In this document: positions 1,588 to 11,095 of the stretch, one piece after another
How the letters are laid out: the number at the start of each line of letters is the position of its first letter
How positions within the stretch are numbered: the first letter of the stretch is position 1
Origin: a virus
Lineage: Duplodnaviria > Heunggongvirae > Uroviricota > Caudoviricetes
Strand: one strand, 5' to 3'
DNA: 64,000 nucleotides
Virus record (IMG/VR): IMGVR_UViG_2529292906_000009
Location: 1-64,000 of that record
The notes under the pieces: generated by a model
What the model was told of the DNA's origin: nothing
The model's input: only the letters and a program-made list of their open reading frames with translations
Databases searched by the model: none
Made by a program: the position numbers and the translations under genes

Positions 1588-3072
1588 TTATTCATTAAGC
1601 CATGCCAGAGCTTCATCAACCTGCGCTTCGTCTTCGACGCTAAGCACTTCATCCTGGGGAACATAATCCGCCAGCATAGCGAAACAATATGTATCCCAAT
1701 GGTCTGGTGAGTGCAGGTTGAGTTTTTTCTTCATATCCTCCTTACTCATCACCTTCCATTGACCTGCGGAGTTAATCCCTACAGGGATTTTCGACGCTTC
1801 CTCAATAGTTTCATTACCCTTATCCAGTCTCATACGACCAGATTTTACGGCCTCTGCGGCTTGAACGTTGGCATAAGCACGTTTATCAAAGTACAGGCTC
1901 TTATCTTCACGGCTATGCATCTTTTTACCCCAGCGTATACGCTGTACGGTAATACCATAATACTCGTACATCAGATCCGCCGTTGCTTTACCCAGCCCAT
2001 CGCCGTCTATCGCTATGGTGATATTTGGGAATCGCTCAGGATTACATTCTGCGAAAATTTTGGCGGCAAGCTGCGTTTCTGTAACGTCTGTGTATTCCAG
2101 CATTCGATAGTTGATTACACGGCGTTTATTTCTCTGGCCGGACACCATCATGATATTGATAACGGACTTATCCCGTCCCGTACCACCAGCAACGTCCACA
2201 CATGCAAGCCAGCCCCATCCTTTGGCAATCTTGACTTTCCGCCGCGTCGCACGTTCAACCTCATCACGTCCAAGAAGGAAGCCATCCTGTGATTTAGGGA
2301 ATAGTCCGCGTACCTTAATCATGTACATAGGGTTATCACGCCCGCCGTACTCCGCCAGCTTCATTTTGATAAATGCTGGCGTTACCAGCGGTGATTCCTC
2401 ACTGTTAAGCGTGATCGCCGTATAAACGCCATCAGGGTTACCAGGACGCTTGGCCAGTTTATGGTGAGTATCGTAGAAATAGCCGCTTGGGCGTGTAGGC
2501 TGTGACAGTAATAAGATGCGGTTATCCTGTCCGGTAAGAGCACCGGTGATGATACCGAAAGCTCTATCACTGACACCGGAGGCTTCATCGATAATATACA
2601 GAAGATGATCTGCGTGTTCACCGGCGAGAGCTTCTTCACTTCCCAGACGAAAGCCCTTCGGTACTACAGTCCATACACCTTTACCAGTAACCTCATAGAA
2701 AGCGGTTTCTGTCAGAACAAAATAATCAGCAAGCCATGGAAAACGGCTGGTGGCAGTAGCCCAGTTTATCTTGATGTACTTGAATATACCGGTCATTACC
2801 TGCTGAATTTTGTTCGCAACGATAATGGCGCGGGCACCGGGATACATGATTATGAACAACATGATCATGATAGAAGTCATGTCTGATTTCCCGGTACCGT
2901 GACCAGACGAAACAGATGTCTTGCTACCCTGTTCCTGCACAGACTCAATAATCAGATCCTGCTGCCAGGTAGGTGTTTTGCCGAACAAAACATCAGCGGC
3001 AGCAATCCAGTCATAACGATATAGCGCCACCAGCTCGCGCCAACGTGGATCCGTTACGCAACTTCTGGCCAT
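1588..3072 (-). CDS. pacB: terminase large subunit (494 aa)
   Basis: Terminase large-subunit fold recognised; start overlaps pacA stop; size equals recalled P1 PacB. Confidence 0.85.
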
Positions 3073-4265
3073 TAATCATCATCCCCGTATAGCTTGCGGG
3101 TAACTTCTTCGTCTTCCTCCTCGTCTTCGTCCAGGTCTTGTTCCAGCCATGGGTCGTTTGATACACCTTCAGTATCAACATCTCCATAACCGCCTGTATC
3201 AACGATATCGGCGATTTCTTCCCTACGCTGCTCAATCCACAATGCGGCATCGGCGCGGCGGTTGGCGGCCCGTTCTCGCGCAACTTTGTCCAGATCTTCA
3301 AGAGAAGGGCCACCGACGGCTGTTTGCCTTTCCTCATCATCGGTATTGGTCTTAGGAGCACGCAGATCGGCTTTGATTTGCTCCAGCATCAGGGGCGGCA
3401 CTTTTCCGCCATGCGCCTCGATGAATTCAGCTGCTTCCAGCACTGACCAGTTATTTTCACGCTTTCGTTCGTATGCCAGCTTAACAATGCCAGCTTGCCC
3501 CATAGATAAAGCGTGCTTTTCCGCCTCCCGGCTTTCTTTTCGATAGTTATTCCGGATGCTGTAAATGGTGTTGATCAGGCTGCTTATCTGCGCGGAACAG
3601 CTGTTTAGCATGCTCGCGATACGATATTCAGGCGGAGTCCCTTCATCATCGTCTTTTTGCTGATCGCGCATTTCCTGCACCAGACGAATACACGTATCCC
3701 TGGCGTTCTCCAGCATAAGGAGATGAGAAAGAGACTTTTCCAGAAGAGTGGTTTCCAGAACATCGGCCCCGGACCGACGCAACATAGCGCGCGCGGCCTT
3801 CCGCGCTTCAACGTTATCTATCAGGTAATCGCCAGCTTCGAATTCAAAGCGTTCACCATCATCATCCAGGGTGTCGCGTTCCAGGCGATCACGTAAGGTC
3901 CGGTGGGCGCGGGTGATCACGTCATGATCATCAGAACGATCATTTATGCGCTTATTTTGGCGCTTCGCATTCTCGACTGCGGCACTGACAACGGCATTAA
4001 CCCTTTGTTTTTCCGCTATTTCAGCCGCAATGTGATCACCTGCATGTTGATCATTAGAGTGATCAATGATCATGCTTTTTAGTGGCTTCCTGACTGGCTT
4101 ATTTGGCTTGCGGCTGTCCGCTGTCCTGGTGTCTTCTTTGAAGGCACGGAGATAACGACGTGCAGTATTAGGGTTAAGATTAAACTCGGCGGCATACTGT
4201 GCGATGGTGTAACCACCATCTCGCGCCAGGCGAGCAAAATTCTTCTTGTGATCGTCCCAGGTCAC
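3072..4265 (-). CDS. pacA: terminase small subunit / pac recognition protein (397 aa)
   Basis: 397-aa ORF with acidic C-terminus upstream of pacB; contains the GATC-rich pac site in its 5' third. Confidence 0.8.
3880..4075. promoter_or_regulatory. pac: pac packaging site: two clusters of four GATC-containing TGATCA-type hexamers
   Basis: GATC at about 3888, 3915, 3926, 3938 and at 4033, 4049, 4060, 4068 inside pacA; matches the known Dam-methylation-regulated P1 pac architecture. Confidence 0.6.
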
Positions 4266-6146: not shown

Positions 6147-6527
6147 CTACTCCGCAGAACCATACAATCTACGTAACGTGTCGGCGACAGAAGATACAGA
6201 TATCTCGCCAGTCGCAGCGCCTACAGTAAGGTCTGCCAGTTCAGGTGAATCAAATACCTGCACCCCGTTACGGCGTAGAAATAGCAGCGCACTGTTTAGC
6301 GCGGTACGCTTATTGGCATCATTGAATATATGCCCTCTCGCTGTAGCCACCAGGTAGGTGGCGGAGACTTCGAAAAGGTCGGTGATCTCTTCGTAGGCAA
6401 CTCTGGCCTGAACTCTCCCGATAATGGCCTCTGCCCTACCCGGATCTGACATTCCCGGCAGGCCGCCGTAGCGGCTTATATTCGCATCATGAAGCGCAAT
6501 AAGTTCTTCCGGTGATATATGCCTCAT
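6147..6527 (-). CDS. doc: Doc toxin (Fic/Doc family), 126 aa
   Basis: Sequence recognised as P1 Doc (death on curing); coupled to phd. Confidence 0.85.
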
Positions 6528-6748
6528 TATCGGTTAACCAGTTCCTTGTTGGTGGAGTCCAGGGTGTCAAACAGGGATGCAAATTCAGCATCCAGCGCCG
6601 CTTTTTTGTAGGCTTCGAAAGTAGCCTTGCTGACAATTACTGCTGGCTCACGGCCTCTGCGGGTGATTTCAACCTCTTCCCCGGCTTCAACATTGTTGAG
6701 CACTTCAGAAAGGTTGCCACGCGCGGTACGGAAGTTAATGGATTGCAT
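6527..6748 (-). CDS. phd: Phd antitoxin (Phd/YefM family), 73 aa from the second Met
   Basis: [16 protein letters not shown]... recognised as P1 Phd; stop overlaps doc start. Confidence 0.85.
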
Positions 6749-6820
6749 AAACACCTCGTGTACTCGTTATGTGTACACAATTATAAACTTCACAGGCATA
6801 AAGCACCAGCACTTTGCAGC

Positions 6821-7210
6821 TTAAATAACCGGACAATCATCAAATTCCCCACTTCGGGCATCATTGATGACATGAGTGATCACACCAAAAACAGCATTAC
6901 TGCCCGTGTATCCATCGTCATCTACTGGTAACGCCTCTTTCTTCCCGGTGCTTAAATCCTCCAGGTGCTGGCGCGGATACTTCCTGTATCTCTTTATGCG
7001 ATATTCACCCTCCATAGCGCACACAAGCAGAGAACCATCAACCGGAGTAAGCGAGGAATCAACCACCAGCAAAGCACCCTGCAATATTCCCTCACGGTGA
7101 TGGCTATCAGCTGCCCGCATGAAGTAGGTTGCTGATGGATGCCTGATTAGTTGCTGATCAAGAGAAATTCGGCTTTCAACATAATCCGCCGCAGGAGAAG
7201 GGAAGCCCAT
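6821..7210 (-). CDS. humD: UmuD'-like S24 peptidase-fold protein lacking the N-terminal autocleavage arm
   Basis: Aligns to E. coli UmuD from the post-cleavage Gly onward (GFPSPAADY...); catalytic Ser and Lys positions conserved; LexA box 20 bp upstream. Confidence 0.8.
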   Translation of the reverse strand: MGFPSPAADYVESRISLDQQLIRHPSATYFMRAADSHHREGILQGALLVVDSSLTPVDGSLLVCAMEGEYRIKRYRKYPRQHLEDLSTGKKEALPVDDDGYTGSNAVFGVITHVINDARSGEFDDCPVI

Positions 7211-7229
7211 AGCGTTTTCACCTCAATAA

Positions 7230-7249
7230 TACTGTTCATTTATACAGTA
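7230..7249. promoter_or_regulatory. LexA (SOS) box TACTGTTCATTTATACAGTA
   Basis: CTGT-N8-ACAG palindrome, close match to the E. coli LexA box consensus; in the divergent intergenic region between humD and 7385..8326. Confidence 0.7.
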
Positions 7250-7384
7250 TACATTAAAGAGACACCTTTGGTGCAAACGCGTTACGTACATCAACCACCG
7301 CTGATGATTTTGTGCTCTTTGCTACTATTCATCACCAACGGATCAGCGTAACCTCGTTGCCAATCAGTTAATAAGGAATTAGCT

Positions 7385-7969
7385 ATGCCTAATCGCATTC
7401 CTCTCGCTCCTGTATTGCCCAAAAATTTTGACTGCACTCCTAACGAGAAACGCTCTAAAGCTCAGCTGGACGCCTGGTGGGACCATCCATATGGGGTTAC
7501 ACAACCTGACGGGAAAATTGTAGTTTATTGTCTGAATGGTGGGGCGTGGGACCGTCCATCCGTGCTTTGTTTGGCAGATAACTATGATGAAGCCTGTGAA
7601 CTTGCCGAAAGACAGCAGGCAAGCTGGGTAAAAACACGGTCTGAACCGACATTCATGTTTTCAAAAGAACCGCCATTTATACTGGCGAGGATGCCGCAGC
7701 GACCGGATCATCAACAAGAAATTGTTGCTGAATTTTCCTCTAGGGATGAGATGAATCTCTTCTCATTAAAGCAGGAAGAAAGGGATCGCGTCGAAGTGTC
7801 TCCAACTCTCGACCACAACCGGATGAACCTGGCCCAACTCGCCTGGTACAGCAAAGAATTAGAGATGTCTATTGCCCGACTTGAAAACGAAAAAGCCGCT
7901 ATCCAAGCCCAGCATGAAGTAGTTCTGAACCGGATTAGAGAAATGCAAAACGATAACAGGGGATTTTGA
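7385..7969 (+). CDS. hypothetical protein (194 aa), first gene of a two-gene module downstream of the LexA box
   Basis: Long ORF starting 135 bp from the LexA box; stop overlaps the next start (TGAATG); no recognisable domain. Confidence 0.5.
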   Translation: MPNRIPLAPVLPKNFDCTPNEKRSKAQLDAWWDHPYGVTQPDGKIVVYCLNGGAWDRPSVLCLADNYDEACELAERQQASWVKTRSEPTFMFSKEPPFILARMPQRPDHQQEIVAEFSSRDEMNLFSLKQEERDRVEVSPTLDHNRMNLAQLAWYSKELEMSIARLENEKAAIQAQHEVVLNRIREMQNDNRGF

Positions 7970-8326
7970 ATGGCTAAAATCGAGTACCATCGCGATCGCG
8001 GTAATTACCTGGAAATATACGATCATGAATCTCTTAACGATATCAACGATGCGTTATATGAATACTGTGAAAAAACGAGCATCACAGATGCACCTGATGC
8101 ATTTGTCGAGCTACCGGTATATCTCCGCGACATCTATGCAATACGAACACCGCCCGTATCGGTGATCCACATTGGCTATGTCCGCCTGTCCATCGAAGAA
8201 GATGAAGATCGTTATATCGTGCGCCACTATACATTGGACAGAAAAGAACTTCCTAATGAATGGAACATGAGTAATTTCTACAACGGTGAATATGGCTTAA
8301 AATCCACTAATAATTTACGGTCATAA
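7970..8326 (+). CDS. hypothetical protein (118 aa), coupled to 7385..7969
   Basis: ORF starts on the stop codon of the upstream gene; no recognisable domain. Confidence 0.5.
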   Translation: MAKIEYHRDRGNYLEIYDHESLNDINDALYEYCEKTSITDAPDAFVELPVYLRDIYAIRTPPVSVIHIGYVRLSIEEDEDRYIVRHYTLDRKELPNEWNMSNFYNGEYGLKSTNNLRS

Positions 8327-9188
8327 TCTATACAGGCATGTATAACAACAACGAGCCTATTAGCTGTCAACAACGTTATTTTCTCAAATAAGAAAAAGCA
8401 GAAAACAAATTGTTTAAGGTCACAAATTGTGGCCTTGATGGAGGAGGGAGGCTTATTGGCTATGGCTAAAAATCAAATTAGACACTTCATGTTGCTGTAG
8501 CTCATCAAGATCCGAGGCCACAAAACCTTTTCCGAAAAACTTCACAAGTAACTCACTAGCCGCATCATTGTCACCTATTACACGAAAGTCATACGGCAAC
8601 GTCGCAAGTTGACGATGTAATCCTGCTGAGAAAGTCGAATCTAACAGCGACCAGAATTCCCACCGCAGGATAATACTCGCCTCTTAATACTGTATATATG
8701 TTGTTACGATATGTTTTTCTGTCTCTAAAAAAAGATGTTAATAGAATGCTAACCATTGAAGGGGATAAAAATATACAATTCCAACAAACGTTATTTTTAA
8801 CAATTTTTTTCTTTGCGTTGACTTTCCCGGACACCTTGTCTGACCGAAGGTGCGCGAAAGCCACTTTTTCCTTCCTGAGTTATCCACAAAGTTATGCACT
8901 TGCAAGAGGGCCATTTTCTACATATTGTGGTGGCTAACAGATGAAATGAATGTAGATTAATTGAAGATAAGGAGAAAATTTGAGATGCAATCATGACGTT
9001 AATAGATAGGGTCTGCATTACAGACCCCATCCGCATCAAGGAATTAGCCGTTCCCTGATGTTGTTCCGAAAACATGTGCCGTAAGCTCACGTTAACGACT
9101 TTCTTTCACCGAATCCAACTATATAGGGGTTGGGTTTCTACGTCAACGTGAGCAAGTGCTCCTTTACATTTGACAAGGAACCACCTTA

Positions 9189-9326
9189 ATGACTGCTTTT
9201 TTTCAGTTCCTGAGTGCATTTTTAGATGCGCCTGTTATTAGCCAGATTCTGGCGATCATCCTCATCATCGTTTTGATTTTGCTTTTAAGGTCAGTAAAAA
9301 ATGGAATTATGCACTGGCTTACTTAA
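9189..9326 (+). CDS. small hydrophobic peptide (45 aa), possible membrane peptide
   Basis: MTAFFQFLSAFLDAPVISQILAIILIIVLILLLRSVKNGIMHWLT; AGGA 9 nt upstream; lies in an AT-rich region without long ORFs. Confidence 0.25.
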   Translation: MTAFFQFLSAFLDAPVISQILAIILIIVLILLLRSVKNGIMHWLT

Positions 9327-9400
9327 TGTTCAGTGAAACATTAAAATCTCCTTGATGTGGAAACAATCATTTTCTGTATGTGCTGGTGGGTACCTGTAGT

Positions 9401-9757
9401 TCAGCTTTCGTTGGCATTTAACTTCGTCTTTGCTTTCTCCACCAGCAACTTCCAGATGCCTATTTCATTAGCAGCCGCCTTGATGGCGGCATAAAAAGCA
9501 TCTTGCTGATCGTAACGCTGAATCTGTTTTTTCAGTTTTGCCTCCACCAATTTAATTTCATTACGTGCTTTCTGAAGCCGAAGCGCCGCCCGGTTACGTC
9601 TGTTCTTGTATAGCGCGTTAATCTCTGACAATTGCTTTAATTTACCAGCCTGACTGCGGATTATCGCCTCTCTGACTTCTGCCGTGCGTCTCATCTGATC
9701 TCTTAAGAGTTCACCGTTTTCGATAATTCTTTCAAGGTGTTTGATGTGATCTGCAAC
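9401..9757 (-). CDS. hypothetical protein, 5' end separated from its native start by IS2
   Basis: Frame continues from native ATG-AGA-GTT at 11099-11091 across the IS2 insertion; the first 9 codons of the tracked ORF come from the IS2 end. Confidence 0.45.
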   Translation of the reverse strand, partial: VADHIKHLERIIENGELLRDQMRRTAEVREAIIRSQAGKLKQLSEINALYKNRRNRAALRLQKARNEIKLVEAKLKKQIQRYDQQDAFYAAIKAAANEIGIWKLLVEKAKTKLNANES

Positions 9758-9768
9758 TGGATTTGCCC

Positions 9769-10674
9769 CTATATTTCCAGACATCTGTTATCACTTAACC
9801 CATTACAAGCCCGCTGCCGCAGATATTCCCGTGGCGAGCGATAACCCAGCGCACTATGCGGATGCCATTCGTTATAATGCTCGAACGCCTCTGCAAGGTT
9901 CTTTGCTGCCGTTAACCCGTCTGGTTTGGGCATGATACTGATGTAGTCACGCTTTATCGTTTTCACGAAGCTCTCTGCTATTCCGTTACTCTCCGGACTC
10001 CGCACCGCCGTGTTCTTCGGTTCAAGTCCCAACATCCGGGCGAACTGGCGTGTTTCATTAGCCCGGTAGCATGAACCATTATCCGTCAGCCACTCCACTG
10101 GAGACGACGGAAGATCGTTGCCGAAGCGGCGTTCCACCGCTCCCAGCATGACGTCCTGTACTGTTTCACTGTTGAAGCCGCCGGTAGTCACCGCCCAGTG
10201 CAGTGCCTCACGATCACAGCAGTCCAGCGCGAACGTGACACGCAGTCTCTCTCCGTTATCACAGCAGAACTCGAACCCGTCAGAGCACCATCGCTGATTG
10301 CTTTCTTTCACGGCCACTCTGCCTGTATGTGCCCGTTTCGATGGCGGTACAGCAGGTTTTCGCTCAAGCAACAGCGCATTCTGGCGCATGATCCGGTAAA
10401 CACGTTTGGCATTGATCGCAGGCATACCATCAAGTTCTGCCTGTCTGCGAAGCAGCGCCCATACCCGACGATAACCATACGTGGGCAGCTCTCCGATAAC
10501 ATGGTGTATACGGAGAAGCACATCCGTATCATCAGTGTGACGACTGCGGCGGCTATCCATCCAGTCATCGGTTCGTCTGAGAATGACGTGCAACTGCGCA
10601 CGCGACACCCGGAGACAACGGCTGACTAAGCTTACTCCCCATCCCCGGGCAATAAGGGCGCGTGCGCTATCCAC
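9769..10674 (-). CDS. insD: IS2 transposase OrfB (301 aa)
   Basis: Sequence recognised as IS2 InsD (DDE integrase domain). Confidence 0.9.
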
Positions 10675-10997
10675 TTTTTTGCCCGTCCATATTCAACGGC
10701 TTCTTTGAGGAGTTCATTTTCCATCGTTTTCTTGCCGAGCAGGCGCTGGAGTTCTTTAATCTGCTTCATGGCGGCAACAAGTTCAGAGGCAGGAACAACC
10801 TGTTCTCCGGCGGCGACAGCGGTAAGACTTCCTTCCTGGTATTGCTTACGCCAGAGAAATAACTGGCTGGCTGCTACACCATGTTGCCGGGCAACGAGAG
10901 AGACCGTCATCCCCGGTTCAAAGCTCTGCTGAACAATTGCGATCTTTTCCTGTGTGGTACGCCGTCTGCGTTTCTCCGGCCCTAAGACATCAATCAT
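10632..10997 (-). CDS. insC: IS2 OrfA (121 aa, HTH)
   Basis: [18 protein letters not shown]... recognised as IS2 InsC; overlaps insD in the -1 frame as expected for programmed frameshifting. Confidence 0.85.
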
Positions 10998-11095
10998 CTG
11001 TTCTCCAATGACTAGTCTAAAAACTAGTATTAAGACTATCACTTATTTAAGTGATACTGGTTGTCTGGAGATTCAGGGGGCCAGTCTAGCAACTC

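Follow-up and report, generated by a model that had tools for sequence, protein, structure and literature searches.

A gene-poor gap in a P7-type phage-plasmid reads as a recombination joint with a candidate antisense-controlled membrane-peptide cassette

Introduction

Phage P1 is among the most heavily used and best annotated phages, and P1-like phage-plasmids are frequent vehicles for resistance genes in E. coli and Salmonella. The 64-kb stretch of DNA analyzed here (64,000 nucleotides, referred to throughout as the window) is a P1/P7-like phage-plasmid, and the sequences flanking the locus under study place it among the P1-family plasmid prophages. Within the window, the 1074 bp from position 8327 to 9400 form the largest interval without an open reading frame (ORF) of at least 100 aa. 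A sequence-only reading had described this stretch of about 1 kb as an AT-rich anomaly holding an ORF for a small hydrophobic peptide, reminiscent of membrane toxins or holins, and possibly the remnants of decayed genes. What, then, is this interval made of, and is the short ORF within it a gene?

Results

The description of the gap was accurate: its GC content is 39.3%, as compared with 47.8% for the window, and falls in the lowest 0.6% among 1074-bp windows. It does hold ORFs of 97, 91 and 79 aa, annotated in the P1/P7 records as upfN/upfM or upf91.x; in the second lineage described below, these frames are broken. Searches of the region returned no tRNA, and Rfam gave no match at E ≤ 1 in 7000–11000 and noise alone at E ≤ 10 in 8850–9420. 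The closest relatives of 8200–9500 are phage P7 (98.9% identity), which carries an additional IS903 at about 8590 in window coordinates, and SJ46 and other Punavirus records (98.7–98.8%); E. coli plasmid pQ502 is 100% identical across 8900–9420, and the match to P1 is restricted to the DNA right of 8850, at 96.9% identity.

The gap had been placed between an SOS module and a gene interrupted by IS2, which holds for its right border. A pmgV homologue (9401..9763, minus strand; PHROG 4403) is split by IS2 from its first three codons and its operon; the 1331-bp element (9758–11088) inserted at pmgV codon 3–4 and is flanked by the 5-bp target duplication GCAAC (9753–9757 and 11089–11093), the uninterrupted site is visible in pQ502, and the element has the features expected of IS2. 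On the left, the minus-strand genes for Doc, Phd and HumD lie at 6147–7210, but the immediate neighbour of the gap is a homologue of P7 upf93.6, the SOS gene humD (6821–7210) being farther away.

Alignment to other phages resolved the left part of the interval into two dead pieces, the 3′ end of a primase-like gene with its terminator (8416–8655) and an orphaned, destroyed SOS operator (8688–8707). The translation of 8453–8655 (minus strand) aligns with the C-terminus of a 174-aa protein of phage PhiR41_1, whose gene is intact there and whose DNA is about 90% identical to window positions 8400–8664. The match to PHROG 17952 ‘DNA primase’ is strong (E 2.4e-26; families PHROG 17952/849), and we nevertheless classify this 5′-truncated Toprim/DNA-primase-like sequence as a pseudogene because just the C-terminal ~67 of 174 codons are left; an in-frame stop lies upstream at about 8684. 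Between the remnant and the convergent upf93.6 homologue, a hairpin can be read from the sequence at 8416..8436 (AAGGTCACA-aat-TGTGGCCTT); in PhiR41_1 it is conserved directly past the intact gene's stop codon, and it probably once terminated the primase-like gene. The next segment, 8674–8900, is 87% identical to DNA upstream of the umuD-like gene of phage Cyrano, where a perfect LexA box (TACTGTATACACATACAGTA) precedes that gene. Relative to Cyrano, an 11-bp deletion has removed the right half of the box in the window, so that the left half, TACTGTA, is all that is kept at 8688..8707. The suspicion that decayed genes had left remnants here was therefore correct; comparison with related genomes did uncover a degraded primase-like gene, but the interval as a whole is a mosaic and not a single decayed gene.

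Host DNA supplies the following piece of the mosaic. A 129-bp segment (8790..8918, plus strand) is 94.6–95.4% identical to the E. coli chromosome upstream of nrdA and was matched in all 5426 complete E. coli genomes searched; among the places listed for it, the matched part (query 11–139) lies under ypaB. In the alignment to K-12, two DnaA boxes (TTATCCACA at 8880–8888 and TTATGCACT at 8892–8900, plus strand) and the −35 element are identical, the −10 region aligns, and homology stops just past the −10, which by our reading of this alignment leaves the second NrdR box beyond the end of the captured DNA. Homology that includes both DnaA boxes and the −35/−10 elements assigns the segment to the E. 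coli nrdA promoter region, and record M95666 already annotates an ‘nrdA-like promoter’ and a ‘dnaA box’ on the same DNA. A 58-aa minus-strand ORF in this segment (8738..8914; P7 upf91.6) is the counterpart of E. coli ypaB (34 of 46 residues identical to K-12 YpaB by BLASTP), and probably does not represent a separate phage gene. The captured sigma-70 promoter points rightward (8900..8928; −35 TTGCAA at 8900–8905, 17-bp spacer, −10 TATTGT at 8923–8928), has a predicted start at about 8935 and is kept in P1, in the hsd-linked lineage described below and in Cyrano. It matches the consensus at 8 of 12 positions, under the threshold of our promoter scan, and is therefore weak and probably activator-dependent. 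The first sizeable ORF reachable from it is that of the proposed peptide, hereafter ORF45.

Relatives of 8900–9390 were sought by blastn in PLSDB and a phage collection (INPHARED), and by invariant 18–20-mers in IMG/VR, the GTDB representatives and metagenomes. Across all of these collections we found just two lineages of the segment, mutually about 76–81% identical; the GTDB representative genomes had no match to the invariant 18–20-mers. One lineage is of the P1/P7 type. The second is always accompanied by a type IC hsdMSR cassette about 540 bp downstream, and this hsd-linked lineage occurs on both P1-like and metG/apbC-type plasmid backbones. Between the lineages, dS is 0.58 for humD and 0.60 for hot (omega 0.07 and 0.09, respectively), and the difference at synonymous sites of these two genes, about 40%, served as the neutral yardstick for the comparisons that follow.

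The existing P1/P7 annotation (upfM, upfN and upfO, or upf91.3–91.7; PupfN; M95666) covers the same DNA, and its promoters and DnaA boxes coincide with ours. The genes differ: the second lineage does not preserve its minus-strand ORFs, and neither the P1 nor the P7 record lists ORF45 on the plus strand. Stop codons and indels in the second lineage interrupt the frames of both upfM (9106..9219, minus strand, 37 aa) and the upfN-like ORF (8797–9090, minus strand, 97 aa). The match of upfM to PHROG 31823 adds nothing, since its frame is broken, and on this comparison we judge that neither is a conserved coding frame.

ORF45 fared differently from these annotated frames. It runs from 9189 to 9326 on the plus strand and encodes a single-pass hydrophobic peptide of 45 codons (MTAFFQFLSAFLDAPVISQILAIILIIVLILLLRSVKNGIMHWLT). 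The ORF and ribosome-binding site predicted from the sequence were borne out: a Shine–Dalgarno (SD) sequence, AAGGA (9175–9179), sits 9 nt before the ATG, and the 18 residues from 16 to 33 have a mean Kyte–Doolittle value of 3.3 (2.8 in the second lineage) and are followed by a basic RSVK motif. Both lineages share the SD, start, stop and length of ORF45 without indels, which do occur in both flanks, and the frame is intact in 42 of 42 copies (13 distinct sequences). Disrupted alleles also occur, with IS1 at about codon 39 in pNord122_1 as well as frameshifted and truncated forms. The ORF is annotated as J46_0085 in SJ46 and, by PGAP, as WP_000123562.1 in some RefSeq plasmids; it is unannotated in the records of P1 (complement 85992..86129) and P7 (complement 91261..91398). 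No match was obtained in Pfam, NCBIfam, PHROGs or PADLOC, and a word-indexed search of 5.8 billion proteins together with an exhaustive HMMER search of 1.84 billion representatives returned no remote homologue, only alleles of these two lineages that were truncated or carried frameshifts.

We then asked how far the divergence between the lineages speaks for a protein. ORF45 has a dS of 0.55, like those of hot and humD, a dN of 0.22 and an omega of 0.40; 18 of its 45 residues differ, mostly by hydrophobic-for-hydrophobic exchange, and the N-terminal FFQFLSAFL-AP-SQ is invariant. When the 32 observed substitutions were placed at random, ORF45 stayed intact with a probability of 0.16, at most 18 amino acid changes arose with a probability of 0.35, and the two occurred jointly with a probability of 0.07, falling to 0.011 when helix hydrophobicity was also required, a criterion chosen post hoc. 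Protein-level constraint on ORF45 is thus statistically weak. A reading in which the locus has no expressed product, ORF45 being a chance ORF in AT-rich, T-rich DNA and the conserved core consisting of cis-acting DNA (promoters and DnaA sites) and of recent homologous exchange between plasmid lineages, draws on these simulated probabilities of survival and of amino acid change, neither of which sets ORF45 apart from random placement. It also draws on the tolerance of IS1, IS903 and IS2 insertions and of truncated alleles, and on P1vir RNA-seq data (unstranded, log fold changes), where the interval is among the least induced. It has to contend with the 32 differences in 138 nt, as compared with about 55 predicted at the neutral rate (pS 0.40, hot and humD), its synonymous sites changing at that rate; with the lack of indels between indel-bearing flanks; and with the retention of start, stop, SD and a hydrophobic transmembrane segment. 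We regard this reading as improbable. That ORF45 is more than a chance ORF is supported by the frame common to both lineages, the 42 of 42 intact copies, and its independent annotation by PGAP and the SJ46 authors; on balance, we lean toward ORF45 being a genuine gene.

From the nrdA-like promoter to ORF45, the DNA has changed far less than neutral sequence would, with about 16 differences in 186 nt between the lineages (8965–9153). Conservation peaks in 9065–9153, where 2 of 89 nt differ, against 40% at synonymous positions in neighbouring genes, and exceeds even that of the non-synonymous sites of hot and humD. In a natural recombinant, L066, the crossover falls within this most conserved core; gene conversion or homologous exchange could therefore contribute to the near-identity, a point in favour of the reading without a product. 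The leader carries a strong SD-like AAGGAG (8969–8974) and a mini-ORF, ATG CAA TCA TGA (8985–8996), both on the plus strand and identified from sequence and alignments; the mini-ORF is reduced to ATG-TAA in the second lineage, and 2 substitutions in 33 nt separate the lineages here. A 21-codon ORF (MTLIDRVCITDPIRIKELAVP; 8993..9058, plus strand) is open in both lineages, and its omega of 1.0 at a pS of 0.14 indicates that it is without protein-level constraint. Neither inspection by eye nor the promoter scan yielded a promoter of its own for ORF45 in 9100–9188. The SD of ORF45 is predicted to be paired in both lineages, with different partners. Pairing of the leader (8982–8994) with the start-codon region of ORF45 appears in both minimum free energy folds, but was discarded, given p values of 0.2–0.3 against shuffles and low pair probabilities.

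Facing the nrdA-like promoter across the leader, at a distance of about 175 bp, lies the best sigma-70 match of the interval, a leftward promoter (TTGACG-17-TATAGT; 9118..9146, minus strand; 10 of 12 in the scan) that is identical in both lineages and coincides with the promoter predicted in P1 as ‘PupfN’ (86172–86200). The RNA it would produce is predicted to be structured over about 115 nt antisense to the leader (8995..9110, minus strand), with three stem-loops, SL1 (9066–9098), SL2 (9034–9060) and SL3 (9004–9032). The predicted fold of the minus strand (−44.6 kcal/mol, z ≈ −5) is better than that of the plus strand (−32.3 kcal/mol, z −2.9), and the same holds in the second lineage (−38.3 kcal/mol, z −3.4, versus −24.5 kcal/mol, z −2.0). 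This advantage of about 12–14 kcal/mol in both lineages arises because nine G-U pairs of the minus strand become A-C mismatches on the plus strand. In the alifold structure of the lineage alignment, 98% of cells are paired, and by hand count 9 of 46 unpaired columns differ between the lineages, as compared with 6 of 78 paired columns. The differences lie mainly in the SL2 loop (three) and the linkers, none of the main stems is broken, and one pair in SL3 (9012/9024) has changed in a compensatory manner from U-A to C-G. Both the avoidance of stems and this compensatory pair weigh against the absence of any expressed product. Covariation in the region was non-significant (118 of 500 shuffles reached the observed score, with 4 distinct sequences from the two lineages), because just two lineages exist. 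No U-tract follows SL3, so that the 3′ end of the leftward RNA is uncertain, as is its existence as a separate short transcript. The check for an antisense partner that had been suggested for the small peptide has yielded a candidate, modelled as a well-folding minus-strand RNA from a strong, fully conserved opposing promoter.

The leftward promoter may serve another purpose. P1 and the hsd-linked lineage keep hot a few hundred bp downstream, on the strand of this promoter, which probably also feeds hot in the genomes that keep it; the window and P7 are without hot, and in the window nothing intact lies downstream. ORF45 could accordingly be a real but harmless accessory or regulatory membrane peptide made from the nrdA-like promoter without an antitoxin, the leftward promoter and structured leader belonging to lysogenic expression of upfN and hot and being vestigial here. 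Besides the position of hot, this reading can appeal to the P1 annotators, who gave the promoter to upfN, and to the lack of a toxin-family match for ORF45. Expression of hot is reported both for lysogens and for the lytic cycle (Chikova & Schaaper 2007). Both upfN and upfO are non-essential (PMC10695390). The DNA from SL3 to hot, however, is poorly conserved, with a 19-nt indel and a head-on promoter, and the window and P7 keep the promoter and RNA region despite the loss of hot, the latter being a weak point because the divergence is recent. Type I toxin–antitoxin loci, moreover, usually have this layout, with a weak and a strong promoter facing each other across the leader of a short hydrophobic ORF, which also tells against a harmless peptide. 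We consider this alternative somewhat unlikely, though a serious contender.

The peptide itself has the generic features of a type I toxin, being hydrophobic, shorter than 60 aa and furnished with a transmembrane (TM) helix. Among known systems, the closest layout is that of ldr/rdl, in which an mRNA of about 400 nt has a long leader with a small upstream ORF and carries the peptide in its 3′ half, and the antisense promoter lies within the leader without overlapping the toxin ribosome-binding site; LdrD has 35 aa and is paired with the cis-antisense RNA RdlD. ORF45 shares with it the small single-helix peptide, the long leader with a small ORF and the candidate antisense promoter within the leader and clear of the ribosome-binding site, and there is a local resemblance of 8 in 15 residues between the peptides (ORF45 LDAPVISQILAIILI, LdrD LAAPVIAGILASMIV). 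The ORF45 peptide, however, exceeds LdrD by 10 residues, and the predicted antisense RNA is roughly double the size of Rdl. Membership in the Ldr family was rejected: ORF45 had no Pfam match at E ≤ 10, including to PF13940, for which the controls LdrD and LdrB scored 94 and 86 bits; hhalign gave a probability of 7%; the shuffle p was 0.0065 against LdrD but 0.12 against LdrB; and Rfam (Rdl) gave no match.

Two further families, dinQ/agrB and tisB/istR-1, likewise place a small hydrophobic peptide behind a long leader and adjoin SOS genes (here, humD). They differ in that their small RNA is encoded by a divergent repeat, whereas the candidate here would be a true cis-antisense RNA; and, compared with dinQ/agrB, the LexA box of the window is destroyed and the promoter is of nrdA type with DnaA boxes, not LexA-controlled. 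We excluded membership in DinQ/AgrB given the lost right half of the LexA box, the lack of an AgrB match in the window at E ≤ 10 and an upstream repeat that was not found; the tested features of TisB/IstR were absent, and Rfam gave no match to IstR. Cyrano-type phage-plasmids do carry a cassette with the E. coli dinQ/agrB architecture at the syntenic position, which makes a small-toxin cassette plausible here and proves nothing for ORF45. The cassette also recalls hok/sok, a plasmid locus for post-segregational killing, in sitting on a plasmid prophage, in opposing a weak promoter for the peptide to a strong candidate antisense promoter, and in having a leader ORF upstream. It differs with respect to the 5′–3′ fold-back, for which the candidate inverted repeat in the window (9030–9042/9349–9361) was dismissed, as it is not conserved in the second lineage. 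Coupled translation of the mok type is not possible because 130 nt separate ORF45 from the end of the leader ORF at 9058, and Hok/Gef membership was rejected on this ground and for want of a Pfam, NCBIfam or Rfam (Sok) match.

The small size of the ORF45 peptide, its one strongly hydrophobic helix and its basic C-terminal stretch would also suit a holin-like or lysis-timing peptide, as had been suggested. This suggestion is now disfavoured: PHROG and Pfam gave no holin match, the 9-bp LPhot box of P1 is unmatched between 8700 and 9200, and ORF45 lies outside the lysis genes, the P1 record having lydA, lydB and lyz elsewhere. Its promoter is of a host nrdA type, and in plasmid lineages the ORF is also found preceding type IC hsd genes. 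A late, Lpa-dependent promoter was considered and rejected, the single near-match to the LPhot box being inside the primase remnant and lacking a −10 element. A role in lysis is, in our estimation, very improbable.

Discussion

Together, these comparisons indicate that, in this P1-like phage-plasmid of the P7 type, 8327–9400 is a recombination joint composed, as judged from alignments, of two dead pieces and one conserved cassette. The region of P1-like phage-plasmids that contains the interval has already been described as hypervariable (PMC9603915). The gap that had been called an anomaly is real and the longest of its kind in the window, but most of the anomaly can be accounted for by recombination having joined DNA dense in regulatory elements here, in what is a mosaic junction of recognizable fragments and a landing zone for IS elements.

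For the cassette within the joint, the reading we favour, while holding it at less than even confidence, is an antisense-controlled small membrane peptide resembling a type I toxin–antitoxin module. The anatomy of the live cassette (about 8880–9390) can be read directly; its workings, among them toxicity of the ORF45 peptide, pairing of leader and antisense RNA, and regulation by DnaA, we infer from that layout. The nrdA-like promoter with its two DnaA boxes would fire rightward from about 8935, giving a transcript of about 450 nt with a leader of about 250 nt (SD, start-stop mini-ORF and 21-codon ORF) and ORF45 at its end. The stronger, constitutive-looking leftward promoter (9146–9118) would yield an RNA with three hairpins that is complementary to some 115 nt of that leader, and pairing of the two could make the peptide mRNA less stable or less well translated, as at the cis-antisense ldr/rdl loci. 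The peptide would then be made only while transcription from the weak, DnaA-controlled promoter of nrdA type exceeds that of the antisense RNA.

A more ambitious version of this proposal, which we find doubtful, is that the cassette represents an orphan type I-like family of P1-family phage-plasmids, P1 included, defined by the nrdA/DnaA-box promoter and a cis-antisense check. As part of that proposal, the module would be a portable left flank of type IC restriction–modification cassettes. If it were true, a membrane-active peptide would be coupled to host replication and nucleotide status, and not to the SOS response.

These considerations bear on how a reference phage is annotated: the sole frame of the interval that survives comparison between the lineages is absent from the P1 and P7 reference records, and the annotated upfM and upfN fail that comparison. 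Sequence comparison thus offers a suggestive but thin case that the leader, ORF45 and antisense promoter form a candidate new, narrowly distributed type I-like module missed by P1/P7 annotation. Should the sense/antisense reading be wrong, the gap still has an explanation, as an assembly of identifiable fragments at a site of recombination and IS insertion. Should it be true, P1-like plasmids would possess, in addition to phd/doc, another module for maintenance or stress, this one under RNA control and built on a captured DnaA-sensing host promoter.

Repeats around the leader and leftward promoter

The unit formed by the leader and ORF45, the 45-codon frame for a predicted single-pass hydrophobic peptide, is flanked by an imperfect direct repeat of 25 nt (window 8912-8936 and 9368-9392; 19/25 identical). 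Its first copy spans the spacer, the -10 region and the start of the nrdA-like promoter, and the second lies at the right end of the homology between the P1/P7-type and hsd-linked lineages of cassette DNA; the repeat may reflect chance or be a vestige of the unit's insertion. Either side of the leftward promoter, we found a 13-nt inverted repeat with arms 43 nt apart (9085-9097 and 9141-9153; 12/13 complementary), which encloses a second hairpin, placed by hand at 9112-9119 with 9128-9135 and comprising 10 pairs in the computed fold. The 13-nt arms, whose pairing the second lineage retains via a G-U pair, can pair in DNA or in the rightward RNA but not in the leftward RNA. The inverted repeat may serve as an operator or as a structure within the leader.

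Neighboring genes and insertion sequences

The captured nrdA regulatory DNA brought with it the minus-strand ORF annotated in P7 as upf91.6, a 'putative transmembrane protein' (8738-8914), which corresponds to E. coli ypaB, with identity at 34/46 residues. A plus-strand ORF of 79 aa (8698-8937; PHROG 28987) overlaps the upf91.6 DNA, and both are probably annotation artefacts.

To the left, two co-directional plus-strand genes of 194 and 118 aa (7385-8326), corresponding to P7 upf94.2 and upf93.6, stand in for P1's lxr and hot between humD and the gap; some plasmids (loci L060 and L065) carry hot together with the pair. The two genes belong to PHROGs 6164 and 5797, which have no assigned function, and searches of Pfam, NCBIfam and PADLOC gave no match for either.

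The AT-rich interval has been a repeated landing place of insertion sequences. In the window, a 1331-bp IS2 (9758-11088; target duplication GCAAC) interrupts pmgV at codon 3-4, and the remainder of the gene gains a new 9-codon N-terminus encoded by the IS2 end. IS903 of P7 lies in the primase remnant, at about window 8590, and IS1 of pNord122_1 (L068 3420-4117) in ORF45 itself, at about codon 39.

A dinQ/agrB-like locus in Cyrano-type phage-plasmids

The position syntenic with the window cassette in phage Cyrano (OV696614) is 2750-3260. Judged from its sequence, this site in Cyrano-type phage-plasmids looks like a type I toxin-antitoxin locus of the dinQ/agrB type, with the same element order and spacing as E. 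coli dinQ/agrB. It contains a terminator and a stem that matches Rfam AgrB below threshold (27.6 bits, E 0.44), a 20-nt repeat with one copy in the sRNA (2834-2853) and one in the 5' UTR (3007-3026), and a 27-aa ORF (MVNLLFKIVPPMFAIIKAIIEYVNQRP) with a terminator behind it. Among complete E. coli genomes, the AgrB consensus also matches plasmids at 764 sites.

Linkage to hsd and recombination between lineages

At every second-lineage locus (L060-L067), a type IC hsdM-hsdS-hsdR cassette lies ~540 bp downstream of ORF45 on the same strand (e.g., L060 4001-8138). This linkage is present on P1-like and metG/apbC-type backbones alike, and the hsd genes occupy the place held by pmgV in the window and in P1. 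One of these loci, L066 (GCA_005396185.1), is a natural recombinant whose left part is of P7 type and whose right part belongs to the hsd-linked lineage. Because its crossover, at the equivalent of window 9127-9153, falls inside the most conserved 89-nt core, this core serves as a site of recombination between plasmid lineages.
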